A DNA stretch of 64,000 bases from Raillietiella orientalis (Eukaryota), in contig JAYWIR010000009.1 in the NCBI GenBank assembly GCA_036172245.1, forward strand, positions 2,914,001 to 2,978,000, in the 5' to 3' direction. Under the pieces are notes generated by a model. That model worked only from the letters and a program-made list of their open reading frames with translations. It was not told the DNA's origin and did no database searches. This document shows, in pieces, positions 2,886 through 61,950 of this stretch (within the stretch, counting starts at the first letter, position 1; every line of letters begins with the position of its first letter). The translations under genes and the position numbers were made by a program.

Positions 2886-3479
2886 TCAAGCCCGAGATCG
2901 ACCGGTCATCTCCGTACTCCAAGGCCGCCAGCGAGAACGGTGGCACTGCGCTACTCGTCTGCAAGGCCGCGGGCGCTCCGAACGTGACCTTCAGCTGGTC
3001 CCGCGAGGGCGCCCTCCTTGACACCAAGAGTAACGGCAAATACGAAAGCGAGGAGCGGCCCGTGGGCTTCACCACCTGGGAGGGGCGGCTGCTGGTGAAG
3101 AACGTCGGCGCGGCGGACTACGGCGGCTACGACTGCATCGCAAGGAACGAGCTGGGCTTCACGACTCACTGCGTGATGCTCAACGTGACCTCCGCTCCAG
3201 ACGCTCCCAAGTCCCTGAGAGTCCTCAACACCACCCACGACGCCGTCGCACTGCAGTGGACCCCAGGATTCAACGGTGGCCTGGCTCAGTACTTCCGCAT
3301 CCGTTACCGTCCAGTGGGAGAAACGGCCTACAAATATGTCGACGTCCCCACTGCAGAAGAGAACGCCTACGTGGTGGGAGACCTCAAGCTCGGAACGGAA
3401 TACACCTTGGCTGTGATGGCCTTCAACGAAAAAGGGCAGAGCGCATTTTCCAACGGGATGACCAAGGCGAAGACTGCCA
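2886..3479 (+). CDS. sns: Nephrin/sticks-and-stones-like cell adhesion protein, exon encoding last Ig (I-set) + FN3 domain
   Basis: Acceptor ttctttaag| at 2885 and donor |gtgagt at 3480, both phase 1. Open frame KPEIDRSSPYSKAASENGGTALLVCKAAGAPNVTFSW...DYGGYDCIARNELG (Ig C-W-DxGxYxC), then PDAPKSL...LQWTPGFNGGLAQYFRIRY...LKLGTEYTLAVMAFNEKGQS (FN3). Upstream exons not identified intact in this window. Confidence 0.93.
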
Positions 3480-4053
3480 GTGAGTACTCTGCCGTCCATC
3501 TCTTTGCGCGCGCATTTTTTAATGGCCCAAAGCGAAATGCGGCGCTGCGTCCCGTGGCCCCGTTCCCCATCAGCACGACGGTCGCACGAAAAGGAGCGCG
3601 CTCCGGATCCCTTGCTGCTTCTGCTGCTCCTCCTCTTCTTCCCGGACTCCGAGCATCCGTCTAAAGTCAACCTCTCCAGCATTTCCTCCTCTTGAAGCAA
3701 GCCCGGATTCTCTTCCTGCTTGGCCCTGAGTGTAGCAGCAGCTGCTGCTGCTAATTTCTTTCTCTTTCTCACAACCACCACCACCAACTCTTCCTCCTCC
3801 CTCTCCATCCTCTTCCTTATCACCACCACCACCAACAAGAACTCCTTGACTTCTCGTCTTCGTTTTCCTACTTTGATCACCATCTCTTTCCTTCTCATCG
3901 TTTTCCTGCTGCTCTTCGCCGTCGTCGTCGTCGTCGTCGTCATCTCTCCCCCCCCCCCCTCCTGCTTCGCCGCCGCTGCTGCGCTCGCCCGGCGTGATGC
4001 ATGCAGAAGATTCCAATCTAACCATGGGGTTCTCTCTGCATGGTTGTCTTCAG

Positions 4054-4221
4054 GTGTGCCTCCTCTGTCTTCGGTCGCTTCCACCGACCGCCCCCTCGCT
4101 GCTACGGGCGTCCCGAGCCAGCTCGTTCTCGTGATAATCCTCGTAGGGATCGCGCTCTTCTTTTTCAACGTTGTTATCGTTGTTTGTTTCTTGCAAAAGC
4201 GCCGGAGAAAGCGGATTCCAG
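4054..4221 (+). CDS. sns: Nephrin-like gene, transmembrane exon A (168 nt, phase 1-1)
   Basis: Splice sites ttcag| and |gtgagt. Encodes VPPLSSVASTDRPLAATGVPSQLVLVIILVGIALFFFNVVIVVCFLQKRRRKRIP, a hydrophobic helix followed by a basic stop-transfer cluster. Confidence 0.82.
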
Positions 4222-4252
4222 GTGAGTCGCACGCTTTTTTCCTGTCTTCCAG

Positions 4253-4432
4253 AAGAGTATCCGTACAGCGCCAAGGTCGAGCTAGTCAGCTCCATATTCC
4301 GGGAGAAGAGGGAGATCGCCGTGATGGTCATCGTGGGCGTGTCGGTCCCCGGCGGCTGCCTGCTCCTGCTGAACGTGCTCTTGGTCGTTTTTTTCCTCCG
4401 TAGGCACCGCAGAAAGCGCTCCGCGTCCGTGG
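4253..4432 (+). CDS. sns: Nephrin-like gene, transmembrane exon B (180 nt, phase 1-1)
   Basis: Polypyrimidine ttttttcctgtcttccag| acceptor and |gtaag donor. Encodes EYPYSAKVELVSSIFREKREIAVMVIVGVSVPGGCLLLLNVLLVVFFLRRHRRKRSASV. Confidence 0.85.
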
Positions 4433-4619
4433 GTAAGGACGCAGGCGGGGAACAGGAAACAGACAGACAAGCAAACATGGCGGCGATCCGGGATCCGAGC
4501 GCGCAAGCGCCCTCGCCCGGCCTGCCGCCCTGCCTTCCCCAGTTGTAGCAGCAGCAGCAGCAGCCTCCGCCTCCTTGTCGCTTTCCAGACCTTGACCTCC
4601 GGTCCTCTTTGCTTTCCAG

Positions 4620-4762
4620 TGAGCGAGCGGGAGAGCAGCAAGTCCGCCACCATGGAGATGTACGTCGCCAGCACGTACAACGAGACGGTGACCGGGGAGA
4701 CGGTCAGCTCGGTGTCCGAGAAGACGGAGAACTACTCTCACGAGGAATCGGTGGACTACGGG
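4620..4762 (+). CDS. sns: Nephrin-like gene, cytoplasmic exon 1
   Basis: Acceptor gctttccag| (phase 1) and donor |gtacgt (phase 0). Encodes SERESSKSATMEMYVASTYNETVTGETVSSVSEKTENYSHEESVDYG. Confidence 0.85.
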
Positions 4763-4855
4763 GTACGTCGCGGGATGGCTTCGTCCCTTCCCGCCCCTCC
4801 CCTGTGGGAGGAACGATGCACCACCCCTCACCCGCTTTCCTTTTTGCTCCTCAAG

Positions 4856-5078
4856 GACGAGGTCGCCAAGAAGGCCACCAGCACGTACCTGGTGGACAAC
4901 CTCGACCCTCCCAGCTACACGGGCTTCCGGCAGAACGAGATGTACGCCTCCAGGACCCTGCCGTTCCCCTGCGGGAGGACCCCCTACGGCGAGAGGGACG
5001 GCAGCCGCCACTACGCCGAGACTCTGCGCAGCGTCGCCGCCGCCGCCGTCGTTGCCCAGCAGCAGCACCAACCGAGCG
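4856..5078 (+). CDS. sns: Nephrin-like gene, cytoplasmic exon 2
   Basis: Acceptor tttttgctcctcaag| (phase 0) and donor |gtgag (phase 1). Encodes DEVAKKATSTYLVDNLDPPSYTGFRQNEMYASRTLP...HYAETLRS...QQQHQPS. Confidence 0.8.
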
Positions 5079-5141
5079 GTGAGACCACTCTCTCTTTCGC
5101 GCGCACGCGCCCGCTCCCCTGACCTGACACCTCTCTTCCAG

Positions 5142-5476
5142 GAGAGTCGCCCGCGGCGAGGGGAGTCGCCACCCCCAGGAGCGGACGTGACTTCCACACG
5201 TACCAGAGCGACGCGCCTTACTCTCCATACCCCTCCCAGAAACTCCTGCCTCCTCTGCCGTCCCAGACTGGCCCTCTCAACCACCTCCACCACCACCACC
5301 ACCACCACCATCACCTCCGGAACGGGACCGTGCCCAACGGCTGCCTGAACCGACCCCAGATCGTGTCGCCCTCCCCCGCACTGCCCCCCGCCGTCCCCGT
5401 GTTCAGCACCTTCAACAACTCGAACGTCCCCCACGACGTGTCTCCCGCCGAAGAACTCGAGGGTCACCTCGTGTGA
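5142..5476 (+). CDS. sns: Nephrin-like gene, terminal exon ending in GHLV PDZ-type motif
   Basis: ctgac branch-like motif and ctctcttccag| acceptor. The open frame has Pro-rich and poly-His tracts and ends EELEGHLV-TGA (5474-5476). C-terminal GHLV is characteristic of nephrin (human ...LRGHLV) and its arthropod orthologues. Confidence 0.9.
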
Positions 5477-14334: not shown

Positions 14335-14790
14335 CTTCCTTCTTTCTCCCTTCTTCCTCGTCTTTCCTTCCTCATCGTATTTCTTCCTTGTCCCAATAAA
14401 AAAGGGTCCAGCATTCGCTGGTGCGAGAGCAAGGAAATCAAACATTCCATCACTGGGGGCCATGAATAGGAAGGAGGTACTGCGTGAGGAGGAGAGTGCT
14501 ACGAAGAAATGAAGAAATAGGGCGGACCAGCCTCGGGGGCTGGATGGTTGCCGTCCCCTAAGGTTCGCGTCGCTCAGGAACGGGGAGCAGGAAATCTCCG
14601 TCGGAGACCCGATCGGTGACCGATCTGCCTCGAGGCCCCCATCCCTTTCGTCCCATCCCTCCGCTCGGGCCATCCCGGGGCGTCCCGCACGAGGGCGATG
14701 GAAGGGGGGACATGCGTCGATGGCGGCCGCGTTCTCCTTTTGCTCTGGCGGTGCCTGAGGAGGCTGCTGACGCCCGAGGAGGCGCGCAGC
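14335..14790 (+). repeat. Inverted-repeat arm 1 (RT N-terminal fragment) paired with 21045-21508
   Basis: Antisense ORFs 14212..14943 and 20494..21594 share about 150 aa of near-identical sequence. The sense reading has QPRGLDG (PGxDG) and GDMRRWRPR (NWRPI). Confidence 0.85.
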
Positions 14791-15269
14791 AGTTTCTTCC
14801 CAGCAGTTTCTTTCCGATCCCGCTTCTGCGTGCCCCGGATGGATTGCGGGAAGCCCCGTCTGACAAGAGCAGCCAGGGAAAGGCGCTAGAGATCGCCATG
14901 GTGACGAGCCCGTCTTACCTCTGCTGAATTGCCTGGCACTCAACGGCTATTTCAGAGACCATTTCCAGGACTCCTGTCCGGTTTCCTTGCACAATCGCAG
15001 CCTTCGAGCCGATCTTCCTTAGTGATCACATCCCAAAGTCGTGGATGACGTTGTGTGCACTTTCTACGGGACGCGGCGGGCTGTGTGGAGGTGGTTGCGG
15101 CCTCCCCTCATACGAGGAAGTGGTCCCAGCGGTGGTGGAAGGGAAGACTCTGTGCCGATGACGTCGCGGCCACGATCTCCCGAGACCTCGACCTCTTTGC
15201 CGGACAAACCCTCTTTTTTCACGGCGGTGACTGTGCTCTGGTCCTCCTTTGTCCTCCAATGTTTCCTTT

Positions 15270-16550
15270 ACCCCCTTAGGAGAGACCTTTCGTCAGCAGC
15301 GCTGGTGGGATGCTGCTGCGTCCTCCCTTCACGCCCCGGCATGGGTTCCCCGTTGGCCAGCCTCGTCCGGAAGGAGCCAGCGGGGGGTACACGCAAGTGG
15401 CCCTTTGGCGTCCATTTCCGTTCGACAAAGGCCCGGTGGGACTGGCATTGGCGAGGCCACAGGTCCACCTCAGCCCCCTTCTGGAGTCCTATCTTCTTGG
15501 TCTCCTGGGCGAGCCCGGCCTTCGCGCGAAGGAGGTTGTCCCTCCTCGCTCTCCTCTCGGAAGGCTGCGCTGCGGAGCGCCCGCCGCGGGATGGAAGGTT
15601 CAGCACCCTCTGCCAGGCACTCATCCACATCCGGTCCAGAGATCTCGTGACCCCATTGCGCGCGTCGGCATTCTTCCCGTGGCGAAAGCAGGGAACGCGC
15701 GATCGCATCCCTGGGAAGGATTATCCTCCCCCTCTCCCCGGGACGGGGGACGACTTCCAGTTTGGTCACGGAACGGTCCTCGCCTCTCCAAGGCATTTCC
15801 ATAATGCTGCGGGCGAAGGCGAAGGGCCCTCACAACCTCCATGCGTTCTTGCCCACTGCTGCTGCAGCTGCGCCCATGGACGTTGGACCCTGGCTCCCCA
15901 TGTAACGCTCGTCAGATCTCATGGACAGATGGACGGTGGCCAATTTAAAAAATCTCTGATAACGAGAAGGGATGGCTTTCCCTCCTCGACGAGGACAGAA
16001 TAAGGGGAGGAGAAAGTAGGACGTTGAACAAATGCAAAAATAGGGGATGGAATAAACCCACCTCACGGCGATGACCCCGATTCTCAAGGGTCTGCACTGG
16101 GCAGAGGAGAGCAAAGGCAGGGAGGTGGTTGCTGCCCCCTAGTCCGTGGCCAGTAGTCCCGCCATCTTTCTGAGGACCCCCTGCGCCCCTCGTCCCACCA
16201 GTTGGCTGCAAGTCCTGCCTCATTGCCTTTGGATGCAGGAGCTGGCAACTGCCACCAAGGGCTCTTTCCGGGACGGTGGTCACCACCTCCCTCCGTCGCG
16301 AGCGGTTCACCGTCGCTCCTGCGAGGCAGAGGAGACAACTGAGGAGCCTGGAGAAGAAGACCTGTTTTTCAACATGTCCTATGGTCAGGCAGCATGTAGT
16401 CCTATGGGCAGTCCTTCCAGCAGTCCTATGAGGAAGAACCGAAGTGCCTACAAAGATGCGCTCCCACCCCTACTGCAGTCTTTGGAGCATTCCGAAAGCA
16501 CGTGCGGTAGGGTCAACCACCATCCCGGAGTGAGTAAATTCCTTGTGAAC
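15270..16550 (-). mobile_element. Decayed APE-endonuclease region of L1/Tx1 element; 15690-16550 is an inverted copy of 61105-61950
   Basis: KCLGEARTV (GDFN region) and TRSLDRMWMS (SRIDRxxxS). The 84-aa ORFs 16084..16338(-) and 61316..61570(+) are identical. Confidence 0.7.
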
Positions 16551-17429
16551 CTCCCTTTCCGAAGTGTGTGCCACCGGGATGCAGGTGCAGCCCTGCCGCA
16601 GCCTCGGATGCGGCCCAGAGGCACCGCTGCGGAGTGGCCCACGCTATCCCGCGGTGTTGGGTGGGATGAGCTGGGCGGCCCCCTCTGTTCCCCACCGCGT
16701 GCCCAACAGACGCCCGCGCGGAGATCGACTCCGCCGCCAGGGCGGAAAGAGGCAGGAGGATGGAAGAACTCCCTCTACTCTTCATCCTCGTCTCCCTACC
16801 CCTCGTCCTTCCATTCATCCTCCTATTCCTTGTTCCCCTATTCTCTCCCTCCTGTTCATCATCGTCCCCCCATTCTCCATCCTCATGTTTGAACTTCATT
16901 ACGGAAGCCGCTTTTGCGAAAAGACAGGAGGGCACTTCTTGGCTCCACGGGGGGCGCTCCATCCGCACGCGGTCGTCTGCGGCGCATGCGAGAATGGGGC
17001 GACGCCCGCAGCGCTTTCTCTCGGGCAGCGGCGGCGGTTCGAGGCCCAGCCCTCGTAGGCGAAACGCGCGGCGTACCGAACTTTGTGCGCTTGTGGTGGA
17101 GTCGAAGACAGCTCGAAGACAGCGGCTCGGCGGCGACCGCACCAGCAGGCGCGGTGCATGCCAATGCCACCAAACGGTCCAAGGGCGGGTTTCGCTCCTG
17201 GAGGGTACATTGGGTCCTCGGATCAAGTTGGGGGCCGAGGTCAGATGAAGCTGGGTTATGTTTCCTCGGTAGGCACTGCTCGCAAGGGTGGTAGCAGCTT
17301 CTGCCTCCCCGACCGCTCCCTCTTGGCAGATGACCTAGACGGTTTGACCGGAGTGCGTCTTGGCTACGCATCACGTCGGGTCGCTCCACCGTCGACCTCC
17401 AACGGTCTACCGTACGCGTGAGGGACCTT

Positions 17430-18300: not shown

Positions 18301-21044
18301 CAAATTAGGGAAGCGTCCCTCCCTCCTCCTCACTTCCTTCTTCCCTCTCAGGGAATGAGCTCGCAGCACTCCTTGGAAGATTCTCCCTGCGAGGCACGTG
18401 GTGTTCCTTTTGCCTGGTTCCTCCTGACTTCGTTATCTCTCGGGAAGTGATGCATTGCTCTTGATCGAGAATCAATTACCGGGAGCCTAGGAGTAAAGCG
18501 GTGTAAGCGGAGAGAGAATGCAGAGGAGGAATGAGTCGGGGCTGAACCAATTCCAACCGATCTCCTCGTCCTTCTCCCCTTCCCTCGTTCTCCTCTTCAT
18601 CTCTCTGCTCCTCATCCCCCAATTTCTCATCCTCCTCTTCCTCGTTCTCCTGTTACTCATCCCCCCATTTCTTGTCCACCCCTTCTTCATCCTCTTTTTC
18701 CTCATCTCTCTATTCCTCGTCCCCCTAGTCCTACGAAGCAAAAGGTACGATTAGATCCCAGCAGCTGAGATGGTCGGGCCTGCAGGATGTTGGATTCTCC
18801 TCATGATACCTCACTTCCCCTCGAAGCACCTCGGGCCTGGTTGCATGGATCCAAGGTGGATCCTCGAGTGTGCAACTTGAGCAAGCACTAAGCAACTGAG
18901 TGAAGAGGAGGTCTGAAAGGCGGGAGGAAGAGAGGTATCCGCTCGACAGGGACATCCCAGTTGGGTCGGGGACTCCAGCCATGACCTCACTCGGCGAGGG
19001 GGAACGCGACAGGAAAGACCCTGAGCTCTGGAGGCGGCTGCAGTGGGTGCACTCTGTGCAGCCCGGAAAGGGAGGACGGCGGCCAAGACGGATGGCGGTG
19101 GAGCCGGCAGCAAAGGATCTCGGCTGTGCGCTTCGTGATTACTCCTCCCAACCAGGTCAGCACGCTGACTTCAGGGACAGAGGAGCGAATTCGATTTCTC
19201 CTCGTGCGTCTCCAGGGTCAAAAGTGAAAGCGAGGAAAATGATGGAAAGCTGCGGGGATGGATTTCTGGAGCAGCTTCAGGAGCGGCGTCCAGGCGGAAC
19301 TGCCCTGAGGCGACGCGGCCATTCTGTGAAAAGGCCGGGCGGGGATGGTTGCCTGCGAGGGCGCCGGCATGCGACCCTTGCCGGGTTTTCGCGTTCGCGA
19401 ACCGTCGCGCGAAGCAGCGGAGATGGAGGGCGTCACCGCCACACGGGTGTCGTCCCGAGCAGCCGCAGATGGGGGAACCTGGACCACTGGGACGAAGTCG
19501 GGGAGATGCCGGTCGCTTTCCGCTGGGGAAAAGCCGGCCTTGCAAGCACGCCGGACCCCTGCTCGGATCCCGGAGGAGGCATGGAGCTGACGGTTGCTAT
19601 GGATGCGAGGCACTCATGGCAGCCCCTGAGAAAAAGCCGGACCCTCTGTCGCCCAGCTGAAAGCGTGGTGTTTGCACAGCGGCATCTCCGTAGCGGCCAA
19701 GCATCATTTTCTCCAAGGCGACGGGAGGACTCCGCTCGAACGACAGCTCTGGGAAACGTCCTGAGCCCAGCCTGTATTCAGGAAACCGAATCCGTGGGCG
19801 CCTTTTCTGTTTGCCCGGATCCCGACTCGGAGGAAAAAATGGCAGGGAGTTCGCCCGTTCCCACGCGCTTCCGCTTCCGGATTGCTTCTTTCCCGAAGAG
19901 TCGCTGAGGCAACCCTTCGTGGACCACTACGTGTCTTTTCACCGCGTGTCCGCCACGCCCCAGTCAGGTGGGTGGGGTGGCAAGGCAGTCCCCTGTCCCG
20001 GCTGGCTCAGCGAGCACTCCGTGGGAAAACCGGGGTAGTGGGGAGGGGTAAGGGACGGGAGGGAGATGCCTTGCTGCGGGCGCCTCTCAGAGCCGCTCCC
20101 GCCTGCTTGAGGGGACGACGACAAGAGAGGCATTCCCAGGCGTCCCCTTCTCTTTTCACCAGGGCTTCCCCGCTGACGTCCTTCCGTCGCGTGACCGATC
20201 CTTGCCCTCCCCCTCGGTTTCGCGGCAACCGGTAGAGGAGCCGGCGCACGCTTCCAACAAGGAGCTCGCCCAGCCCCTTGGGTCTGCACCTCCCCGCCAC
20301 CACCCGCTCCCTCCCGGTTTACTCGCTCACGGTCCTGGGGTAGGGGGGTGCGCAGTGCGAAAGATCCGCCTTCCTGGGTCACGCGGTCTTCGACGTTTGC
20401 CTGGAGCAAAAAGTTGGCCCTCCAGCCGAGCGCGTCCAGGAGTTCATCGAGTATGAAGTCCTGCGGCGGCGGCATGGAACGAATTGCCGGATTATGAGAC
20501 GCCATGGGGAGGGATTGGATGCACGGAGCGGAGGAGAAAGGGATGCCTTCGTCGGCACTTCCGGCCATCAAGCGGCATCGGCGATCCCGGACGGAGCCCC
20601 GTGCCCGGCAATTAGCCGCTGTTCTATGCACCCCGTCCGCGGCGGTTCCTCTCTCGAGACGTGCCCCGGGAACGCGGGAAAAAAGGAGAGGGGGAAAACC
20701 GGGGGTGAAGTCTCCTTCCCTCCCGCTGAGGGCGCCCCGAGGTCTGCGTGGCGCACAGGCATTTGGGGCACGGAAGGAAGCTCTCGACTCGTTAGTGAAA
20801 CTGGGTGTTTCGGGTCACAAAGAGGCCAATTCTTCCCTTCCCTAAGAGACCGCCGGCTGGGGAGCCCGCCGCTCCGGGACGCGCGGGAAGAAGGGGATCG
20901 CGCGCTGCGGACGAGGCGGAGGAACTCGAGCGCCCCGGAGCAGCGAGAGGCAGACCTTGCCTCGCAGGCGCTTCCGGAGGGGCAGGGTCGGAGACCGCGG
21001 CATAGCCGCAGGCGTACACCGACTCCCGCACGCGACCTGCTGGA

Positions 21045-21508
21045 AGGGCGCGCGCCTCTTCGGGCGTGTCAGCAATCTCCTCAGGCACCGCCGGAACGAA
21101 AGGAGAACGCGGTCGCCATCCACGCGCGTCCCCCCTTCCATCGCCCTCGTGCGGGACGCCCCGGGATGGCCCGAGCGGAGGGATGGGACGAAAGGGATGG
21201 GGGCCTCGGGGCAGATCGGTCACAGACCGGGTCTCCGACGATTTCCTGCTCCCCGTTCCTGAGCGACGCGAACTTTAGGGGACGGCGACCGTCTAGCCCC
21301 CGAGGCTGGTCCGCCGTATTTCTTCATTTCTTCGTGTCACTCCCCTCCTCACGCAGCACCTTCTTCCTGTTCATGGCCCCCAGTAATGGAACGTCTTGTT
21401 TCCTCGGTCTCGCACCAGCGGATGCTGGACCCTTTTTTATTGGGACAAAGAAAGAATACGATGAGGAAGGAAAGACGAGGAAGAAGGGAGGAGGTAGAAA
21501 GGAGGAAG
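21045..21508 (-). repeat. Inverted-repeat arm 2 (RT N-terminal fragment) paired with 14335-14790
   Basis: Reverse complement of arm 1, including the flanking CT/GA-rich tract. Confidence 0.85.
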
Positions 21509-59975: not shown

Positions 59976-61104
59976 ATCCTACTTTGAAGAATTAAACACA
60001 ACCTCGGGTGGCGGGGAGCAGCGTCGAAGCTGCGTGAGCCACCAGGCGCGCGATGGCCCTTGAGGTACTCAGAGAACCAAAAACAAAAATGTAAGGAAAA
60101 CAGCGAAGACAGAAAGAAACCCGAAATGGATTTCCATCATGGATTTCAAAGTAGTTGAAGCACCGTGTGGCCAGATGAGCTCTTCGTCTTGTCCTGCTCC
60201 CTGAACGCAGACGTCCGTTGTCCAGATGTAGACGTCGATCCCACCCCCTGAATCGAGGTGGACGGGCTTTTCGAAGGGCCCACAGAAAAGGAAACCGCTT
60301 TCGACAAGTGTCCTTGGAGCCACTGCGCTCCACGGACACAACGGCGGGCAGCGGGGAAGCAGGAAGCAGGATGGGATGTTCGCAGAGACGCCACCAGGAG
60401 TGCTTAGGCGGAAGGCGCTCCTCCAGGTGTCGAGTCGCGGCCTCTGGTCGTCAGCACTTTCTCAAGGGGATCGACTCCACGAGAGGCAAACGGATCACGA
60501 GTCAACGGGTCCCCCGCACAGCCTGCGACCGCGAGAAGCCAGGTGCGCGGCAGTTGTACGGGCCCAGCATTCCCCCGGTGATCGCGAGAGAAGACGGGGA
60601 GTTTCTCCTTTCGAGAGAGGTGTCCCCCCCATTCCGAAGAATTCACTATGCCTGCCACTGTAGGTCAGCTACCTCCGGGAAAAGGCGGGAAGAGAGCTCG
60701 ACTGAGAGGACCCGTATTGAGTCTTCAAGAAACCGCAGCAGTTCCTGTCGATGACAGAAGAAGACGCTCGACGAGCTTCAAACGACGAGGCATCGCAGGT
60801 CAACACTGCAGCCCGCGCTGAAGAAGAATCTTCGGCCATCCAGAAGCAACCGAAGTTCCGTCTGACTGAGGATGTTTCCGGAGCCAGAGATTGCAGCTGC
60901 TCTCTGTGTCGCAGACACGTTGGTTTGGACGCGATAGACCGCTGCAAGGCCGTGGGGTGGGCAAGCGCGGCCTTCTCGTAAGCGGGATACGCGCTCGCAG
61001 ATCGGGGAAAGGTCACGCCCTACAGTTGAACAGAACTTTGTCACCGGGATGCTCTTCATTTTTCGGAACCATAGGAATTCGTACTCACAATTCAAGAAAG
61101 ACAG

Positions 61105-61950
61105 TCCACAAAGAATTTACCCACTCCGGGATGGTGGGTGACCCTACCGCACGTGCTTTCGGAATGCTCCAAAGACTGCAGTAGGGATGGAGGCGCATCT
61201 TTGTAGGCACTTCGGTTCTTCCTCATAGGACTGCTGGAAGGACTGCCCATAGGACTACATGCTGCCTGACCATAGGACCTGTTGAAAAACAGGTCTTCTT
61301 CTCCAGGCTCCTCAGTTGTCTCCTCTGCCTCGCAGGAGCGACGGTGAACCGCTCGCGACGGAGGGAGGTGGTGACCACCGTCCCGGAAAGAGCCCTTGGT
61401 GGCAGTTGCCAGCTCCTGCATCCAAGGGCAATGAGGCAGGACTTGCAGCCAACTGGTGGGACGAGGGGCGCAGGGGGTCCTCAGAAAGATGGCGGGACTA
61501 CTGGCCACGGACTAGGGGGCAGCAACCACCTCCCTGCCTTTGCTCTCCTCTGCCCAGTGCAGACCCTTGAGAATCGGGGTCATCGCCGTGAGGTGGGTCT
61601 ATTCCATCCCCTATTTTTGCATTTGTTCATCGTCCTACTTTCTCCTCCCCTTATTCTGTCCTCGTCGAGGAGGGAAAGCCATCCCTTCTCGTTATCAGAG
61701 ATTTTTAAATTGGCCACCGTCCATCTGTCCATGAGATCTGACGAGCGTTACATGGGGAGCCAGGGTCCAACGTCCACAGGCGCAGCTGCAGCAGCAGTGG
61801 GCAAGAACGCACGGAAGTTGTGAGAGCAGATGCCCGGAGGGCCCTTTGCCTTTGTCTGCAGCATTATGGAAATGCCTTGGAGAGGTGAGAGACCGAACCG
61901 GAAGTCGTCCTCCATCCCAGGGGGGTGATCTTTCCCAGCGATGCGACCGT
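61105..61950 (+). repeat. Near-identical inverted copy of 15690-16550 (APE-region fragment)
   Basis: ORFs 61092..61508(-) and 16146..16892(+), and 61344..61823(+) and 15945..16310(-), differ at only a few residues over their shared lengths. Confidence 0.92.

Follow-up and report, generated by a model that had tools for sequence, protein, structure and literature searches.

Exons 2 and 3 of alpha-tropomyosin are the classical case of exons that exclude each other by proximity of a donor to a branch point. Vertebrate nephrin is known with a single transmembrane (TM) exon rather than a pair, and a soluble form of the protein is made by skipping of the TM exon. Two alternative helix exons are described for Dscam1, where, in the available excerpt of PMC9880076, the choice between exons 17.1 and 17.2 (TM1/TM2) sends the protein to dendrites or axons. 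The available sections of Hatje et al. (2017, PMC5740500) give a steric criterion for mutually exclusive exons, a donor-to-branch-point distance of <50 bp, and argue that pairs of helix-encoding exons cannot be cassettes, since everything downstream would flip to the other side of the membrane. For sns, the excerpt of PMC3385985 places the gene, without detail, among those mis-spliced when TDP-43 is altered, and the excerpts of two papers on Sns (PMC9000958, PMC10084454) make no mention of isoforms. A full-text literature search returned no paper on alternative helix exons in sns/nephrin; Bour 2000, Kocherlakota 2008 and Hatje & Kollmar 2013 (with supplementary lists), which may bear on the matter, lay outside its scope.

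The gene discussed here lies in the window (the whole 64,000-nucleotide stretch of DNA that was analysed) and, by sequence homology, is the 3′ end of a nephrin/Sns orthologue. Its layout, with the evidence for each part, is as follows.

2886..3479, + strand: constitutive Ig/FN3 exon (last Ig and single FN3), from Pfam and homologues; AG at 2884-2885; ends with one base of a split codon
3480..4053, + strand: intron before exon A, 574 nt, from sequence; pyrimidine-rich, of low complexity, with a CTAAC branch-point-like motif at 4018-4022
4054..4221, + strand: predicted alternative exon A, 168 nt, from translation, the A-type profile and its place in the A clade
4222..4252, + strand: spacer, 31 nt, not a multiple of 3, from sequence
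4253..4432, + strand: predicted alternative exon B, 180 nt, from translation and the B-type profile
4433..4619, + strand: intron after exon B, 187 nt, from sequence; CAG run at 4546-4564
4620..4762, + strand: constitutive exon with the conserved start of the cytoplasmic tail (..SKSATMEMYVASTYNETVTGETVSSVSEK..), from an RNA contig of a relative and a motif common to arthropod nephrins
4856..5078, + strand: cytoplasmic-tail exon after a 93-nt GT..AG intron (4763-4855), from the 4762>4856 joint in the relative's RNA contig and from sequence
5142..5476, + strand: last coding exon after a 63-nt intron (5079-5141), from sequence and frame; ends ..EELEGHLV, stop at 5474-5476

We consider it likely that this is the 3′ part of an Sns-type nephrin gene from Pancrustacea, which carries its lineage's conserved pair of homologous anchor exons, and that any one mRNA takes either A or B.

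The Ig/FN3 exon matches the Pfam families fn3 (E = 1.5e-12) and I-set (E = 9e-11), and Ig_3 matches it too (E about 1e-10). All ten of its best database matches are nephrin-like proteins, of which nine are arthropod and one nemertean, with identities of 40-50%, a coverage of 99% and E values between 1.6e-59 and 6e-48; matches to this exon include Artemia, ticks, a millipede, Orchesella and Pollicipes, and fish RPTPs rank after the nephrins at 28-29% identity. The order of an Ig and then one FN3 domain, followed in coding order by the helix exons, is the layout of the nephrin family. The window also contains a cytoplasmic start motif (..SKSATMEMYVASTYNETVTGETVSS..) and a C-terminal ..EELEGHLV-stop, both common to the nephrins of Artemia, tick, millipede and barnacle. 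The assignment to the nephrin/sns family, which the original prediction had made, is thus confirmed by the Ig and fn3 domains and the nephrin-like best matches. It rests on the 3′ part of the gene, the upstream exons (which in nephrin/Sns-Hbs encode eight to nine N-terminal Ig domains) lying outside the window. A run of nine histidines is encoded in the cytoplasmic tail at 5275-5310 (..NHLHHHHHHHHHLRNG..), in the frame of the last exon.

Sequence and translation bear out the core of the prediction, namely two adjoining exons of 168 and 180 nt that each encode a TM helix, have the same phase and GT/AG sites, and lie 31 nt apart. The upstream Ig/FN3 exon ends at 3479 in the donor CCA/gtgagt. Exon A has the acceptor ..gtcttcag/G and a consensus donor, CAG/gtgagt; exon B has the acceptor ..ttttttcctgtcttccag/A and the donor TGG/gtaagg. 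The spacer between them (gtgagtcgcacgcttttttcctgtcttccag) accommodates the gtgagt donor of exon A as well as the acceptor AG of exon B with its polypyrimidine tract. Exon A encodes an extracellular stalk rich in Ser, Thr and Pro, then the TM helix LVIILVGIALFFFNVVIVV and a basic stop-transfer tail, KRRRKR. In exon B the stalk is charged (EYPYSAKVELVSSIFREKRE), and its TM helix is followed by the stop-transfer tail RRHRRKR. Both helices are strongly hydrophobic, with Kyte-Doolittle means over 19 residues of 3.21 for exon A and 2.52 for exon B. Because one base of a split codon stands on each side of A and of B, messages with A, with B, with A joined to B and with neither exon are all in frame. 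Retention of the spacer shifts the frame and reaches a stop at 4401-4403, so that the stop predicted at 4403 is also confirmed by translation. In third-position G+C, exon A (0.65) lies below exon B (0.88), the Ig/FN3 exon (0.80) and the exon that follows the pair (0.96).

The two exons have similar lengths and the same phase, adjoin each other and are homologous in sequence, which are the features of a tandem-duplicated cluster. Their local BLOSUM62 score is 67, from an alignment of the helix, a mid-helix Asn common to both, and the tail, and none of 1000 shuffles that kept the stalk, helix and tail blocks reached that score (mean 35.7, sd 6.7, maximum 64). BLASTP with composition adjustment matched the basic tail alone (E = 0.2). 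Each exon also scores on the profile of the other type (the profiles are described below), exon A with 27.3 bits on the B profile and exon B with 26.2 bits on the A profile, where block shuffles average 3.3 and 3.4 bits and the helices of unrelated fish RPTPs give 0-6 bits. Convergence of two unrelated helices was considered in place of duplication and rejected on the block-shuffle tests and the mid-helix Asn present in both. At the DNA level, A and B align over 35 nt only, so the duplication is old, and the DNA alignment gives no sign of recent gene conversion between them. No third copy of the TM exon was found in 3480-4620, where the intron before A was searched in all three frames.

The same two types recur in other species. 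Among the nephrin-like proteins retrieved, 15 pancrustacean species have annotated isoforms that contain A only or B only and are otherwise identical. A protein search with the Artemia A/B region gave 103 proteins, and nine of the 15 species (the beetles, the decapods and Hyalella) came from ten further protein clusters. The RefSeq set of Artemia franciscana comprises five nephrin-like isoforms, of which X4 and X5 have the A-like segment only, X3 the B-like segment only, and X1 and X2 both in tandem. In Drosophila, “nephrin” X1 and X2 differ solely in the A/B segment, with identical flanks, and A/B isoform pairs were found in D. sechellia, D. santomea, D. guanche, D. kikkawai and D. ananassae. 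RefSeq holds further pairs for the beetles Sitophilus, Onthophagus, Aethina, Agrilus and Coccinella, for the decapods Macrobrachium, Penaeus vannamei and P. japonicus, and for Hyalella, whose first exon is weakly A-like. The nephrin models of a barnacle and a sea louse have a single (A-like) helix. The A/B pair is therefore already in public RefSeq/GenBank isoform sets, and the pair in the window, judged by its sequence matches, is an orthologous, real but ordinary example of it. The original prediction had suggested that the arrangement is undescribed for nephrins; no paper on it was found, but the suggestion was overstated given these deposited isoforms.

We built an A-type profile from six A-only isoforms and a B-type profile from eight B-only isoforms, with the window sequences excluded. 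Exon A of the window scores 46.4 bits on the A profile compared to 27.3 on the B profile, and exon B scores 40.0 on the B profile compared to 26.2 on the A profile; in 300 block-preserving shuffles, the maximum was 25.0 for A on the A profile and 15.5 for B on the B profile. In gene models with two helices, the first helix scored higher on A and the second on B in 11/11 cases. A helix was detectable in 130 of 135 nephrin-like proteins, and these comprised 56 with B, 39 with A, 24 with A then B, one with an unclear helix then B, and 10 unclear. The orders B-then-A, A-A and B-B did not occur among these 130 helix-bearing proteins, the order A-B being found in 24/24 of the classified two-helix models. 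Uninterrupted open reading frames derived from Logan contigs of 3-7 kb, which were taken to be cDNA, contained one helix in 11/11 cases (three A, four B and four tick-like and unclassified).

Some annotated models depart from a simple choice between A and B. RefSeq also contains in-frame A+B models, namely X1/X2 of Artemia and models from nine species of Drosophila (bipectinata, erecta, ananassae, yakuba, simulans, subpulchrella, suzukii, sechellia and santomea). In Artemia and Drosophila the pair thus behaves as two cassette exons in annotation, and the spacer must splice there. Isoform X3 of Hyalella azteca nephrin (P0167, RefSeq) has the FN3 exon joined directly to the cytoplasmic exon and lacks a membrane helix; by analogy, a double skip of this kind in the window (3479>4620, which is in frame) suggests a possible secreted form. 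Another isoform, X3 of Drosophila sechellia nephrin (P0135), ends about 40 residues past helix B in unrelated sequence, and would be a tail-less membrane form, as though the donor of exon B were unused. Since models with A+B and with neither exon exist, the pair is not strictly exclusive in annotation. What stands of the predicted mutually exclusive pair is the alternation of A and B types in annotated isoforms of 15 species; strict exclusivity across the family does not hold in annotation, in view of the A+B models (Drosophila, Artemia) and the model with neither exon (Hyalella).

A maximum-likelihood tree was calculated from 67 helix segments over 64 columns, with a nemertean root and bootstrap values that had not fully settled. 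The A type forms a clade (starred; support 95/90) of 30/67 rows that holds exon A of the window and every first helix. Outside it, in a basal grade that the tree does not resolve, are the B types, exon B of the window and the exons that occur singly in ticks, horseshoe crabs, a scorpion, a sea spider and a millipede. The exact placement of the two window exons is unsure, as their branches are long (1.69 and 1.42 changes per column), and exons A and B are at most 36% and 42% identical to any other row of the tree. The simplest reading is that A would be the derived copy and B would keep the ancestral character, and that the duplication would predate the split of branchiopods, malacostracans and insects.

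The two types also differ in the stalk. In the 20 residues before the helix, the fraction of S/T/P/G is 0.54 in A types (n = 33 distinct segments) and 0.28 in B types (n = 52), and that of D/E/K/R is 0.14 in A types and 0.30 in B types. The window stalks follow their class, with 0.50 S/T/P/G and 0.09 D/E/K/R in exon A compared to 0.20 and 0.40 in exon B. From these compositions, the switch would replace a flexible and probably glycosylated stalk with one that is charged, along with the helix.

A search for RNA runs gave none from the organism itself and a single metatranscriptome (share 0.09), which holds contigs of a relative that are 90-99% identical to the window, depending on the contig. 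They cover 2886-3402, 4620-4762 and 4856-5083, and none lies on 4048-4567, so neither A nor B is reached. One contig starts at 2886 with a non-matching end spliced on, and this upstream exon end has no match within the window; another has a loose end that resembles the start of exon 5142-5476. A 201-nt contig begins exactly at 4620 and is spliced onward, which could reflect a graph break at a branching junction or low coverage; as evidence of splicing, this start is too weak to count. A protein search for transcripts of close relatives with the 47-residue cytoplasmic exon gave none at E <= 0.001 (10 candidates). The one locus that a metagenome scan returned was considered as orthologous DNA and rejected as unrelated: its G+C is 42%, its resemblance is confined to an FN3 piece of 41% identity, and nothing in it matches a helix exon above 8 bits. 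For the window organism, we infer alternative use of A and B from their kinship with the annotated types.

Elsewhere in the window, 12 long open reading frames had no Pfam match, and the many long frames are in line with chance expectation at 59% G+C. Near-identical translated stretches occur in opposite orientation at 15948-16889 and 61095-61820, and at 14562-14924 and 20795-21274. Their recurrence suggests dispersed repeats or transposon remnants, and the long frames tested at these stretches had no Pfam match.

The proposed choice between A and B would yield two type I membrane isoforms with identical Ig/FN3 ectodomains and cytoplasmic tails, which would differ in the stalk, the helix and the first cytoplasmic residues. 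Exon A would supply a flexible Ser/Thr/Pro-rich stalk with its helix, and exon B a charged stalk with its helix. The pair would have arisen by tandem exon duplication before the sampled pancrustacean lineages split, A having diverged and B having kept an ancestral look. Since the same 31 nt hold the A donor together with the acceptor AG and polypyrimidine tract of B, a branch point for B has to be no more than about 10 nt away from that donor, or else inside exon A. U1 bound to the A donor and U2AF/U2 bound to the B acceptor would probably exclude each other, and the products would be A joined to 4620, or 3479 joined to B. An mRNA that included both exons would keep the spacer, shift frame to the stop at 4401-4403 and be a likely target of nonsense-mediated decay.

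The spacing can be compared with known limits. At 31 nt, the whole spacer is shorter than the 50-bp limit on donor-to-branch-point distance (Hatje et al., 2017, PMC5740500, in part), and the other introns of the gene in the window measure 63, 93, 187 and 574 nt, the shortest being 63 nt. From these two points together, 4222-4252 would be unspliceable, and the spacer probably forbids in-frame A+B in this genome. The claim that the spacer is too short to splice holds in that its length is well under the limit given in the available sections of PMC5740500; that splicing is prevented in this genome, we infer. By eye, no canonical branch-point motif (CTRAY) for exon B was seen in the spacer or just upstream of it. 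Local RNA folding around the spacer shows no excess of stability over shuffled sequences (z = 0.65; 141/200 shuffles fold as well). A search for intron pairing of the docking/selector type returned only CUG/CAG simple repeats. CUG-type runs at 3613-3634 and 3735-3753, in the intron before A, are complementary to the CAG run at 4546-4564 in the intron after B (12 nt at 100%, 19 nt at 89%). Pairing between them would loop out both helix exons together, and the runs may be mere microsatellites. The stretch 3600-3960 of the intron before A is pyrimidine-rich and of low complexity, with CCA/CCT runs, a GTC repeat and a C12 run near 3948-3959.

Three other readings of the locus were weighed against this one. 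It is unlikely that one exon alone is still used, the other being a silent relic and the gene producing a single membrane isoform. Such a history would accord with the failure of the relative's RNA contigs to reach A or B, with the strong divergence of both window exons (at most 36% and 42% identity, on long branches), with the third-position G+C of exon A (0.65, below 0.88 in exon B and 0.80 and 0.96 in the flanks), and with the barnacle and sea-louse models that have one (A-like) helix only. However, A and B both have an open frame in the correct phase, with a consensus donor on A and a strong acceptor on B, and each scores far above shuffles on the profile of its own type and has the stalk composition of its class. 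Both types have, moreover, been kept across branchiopods, malacostracans and insects, which argues against decay of either one.

Slightly less probable again is that A and B are used alternatively but kept apart by tissue-specific splicing factors or by RNA pairing between introns, so that the 31-nt spacing is incidental. Species annotated with A+B still have A-only and B-only forms, so that regulation beyond spacing must operate in the family; the intron before A is a long low-complexity stretch rich in pyrimidines, and CUG/CAG runs flank the pair. Yet the trinucleotide runs could pair by chance and would remove both exons rather than choose between them, shuffled sequences fold as stably as the region of the spacer (z = 0.65), and a 31-nt spacer is by itself under the 50-bp criterion (PMC5740500, in part). 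It is very improbable that both exons are constitutive, with the 31-nt spacer spliced as an ultra-short intron to give a protein with two helices. A joined to B would be in frame, and two-helix models have been deposited for many species (24/130 helix-bearing proteins), but many of these entries are GenBank “hypothetical protein” records, taken as ab initio models, and a single helix was found in 11/11 of the uninterrupted Logan-derived reading frames. The other introns of the gene, at 63-574 nt, also speak against so short an intron, and by the argument in the available sections of PMC5740500, the conserved tail with its GHLV end would come to lie outside the cell if the protein had a second helix. 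The reading we prefer remains a conserved A/B pair of which each mRNA takes one member.

For annotation, the locus is best described as two alternative exons, and not as a two-helix protein or a 31-nt intron. Automatic gene callers err at this point, as the 24/130 helix-bearing nephrin-like proteins modelled as A+B illustrate, many of them GenBank “hypothetical protein” entries. The points of some interest are the 31-nt spacer and the depth of conservation. The spacer offers a clean natural case for exclusion by crowding of a donor and an acceptor, and two alternative stalk-and-helix modules would have persisted in the Sns-type nephrins of insects and crustaceans from a time before these groups diverged. 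Should the anchors be unlike in sorting, shedding or lipid environment, the choice would matter for how a single receptor can act in nephrocyte filtration, myoblast fusion and neural wiring; an effect of A or B on sorting or shedding is suggested by analogy with Dscam1 TM1/TM2. Tentatively, the A/B switch may be an ancient device, possibly Cambrian, for which no paper was found, and it may direct one and the same receptor to distinct membrane domains, partners or fates of shedding according to cell type (the nephrocyte slit diaphragm, myoblast fusion sites, neurons), much as TM1/TM2 does for Dscam1. This genome would hold its most hard-wired form, in which the A donor and B acceptor overlap, U1 competes with U2AF/U2 and double inclusion is frameshifted.

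The closest counterparts of the pair in the window are the annotated pancrustacean A/B pairs, for example X1/X2 of Drosophila sechellia, X4/X3 of Artemia franciscana, X2/X1 of Penaeus vannamei and X1/X2 of Sitophilus oryzae. The window pair resembles them in gene family, in position between the FN3 and cytoplasmic exons, in the A-then-B order, in the stalk classes and in the Asn within the helix. The annotated pairs are known as database models only, several of them from species with A+B, whereas in the window the 31-nt spacer should bar in-frame A+B. Skipping of both A and B in the window would keep the frame, as predicted from its exon phases, and would resemble soluble vertebrate nephrin and Hyalella X3. 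Dscam1 17.1/17.2 is likewise a pair of alternative helix exons in an IgSF adhesion receptor; it is a different gene, for which no homology is claimed, and a role of nephrin A/B in localisation is suggested by analogy only. In its proposed mechanism, the pair would resemble exclusion of the alpha-tropomyosin type, in which a first donor and a second acceptor region lie too close together (31 nt here) for the stretch between them to be spliced.
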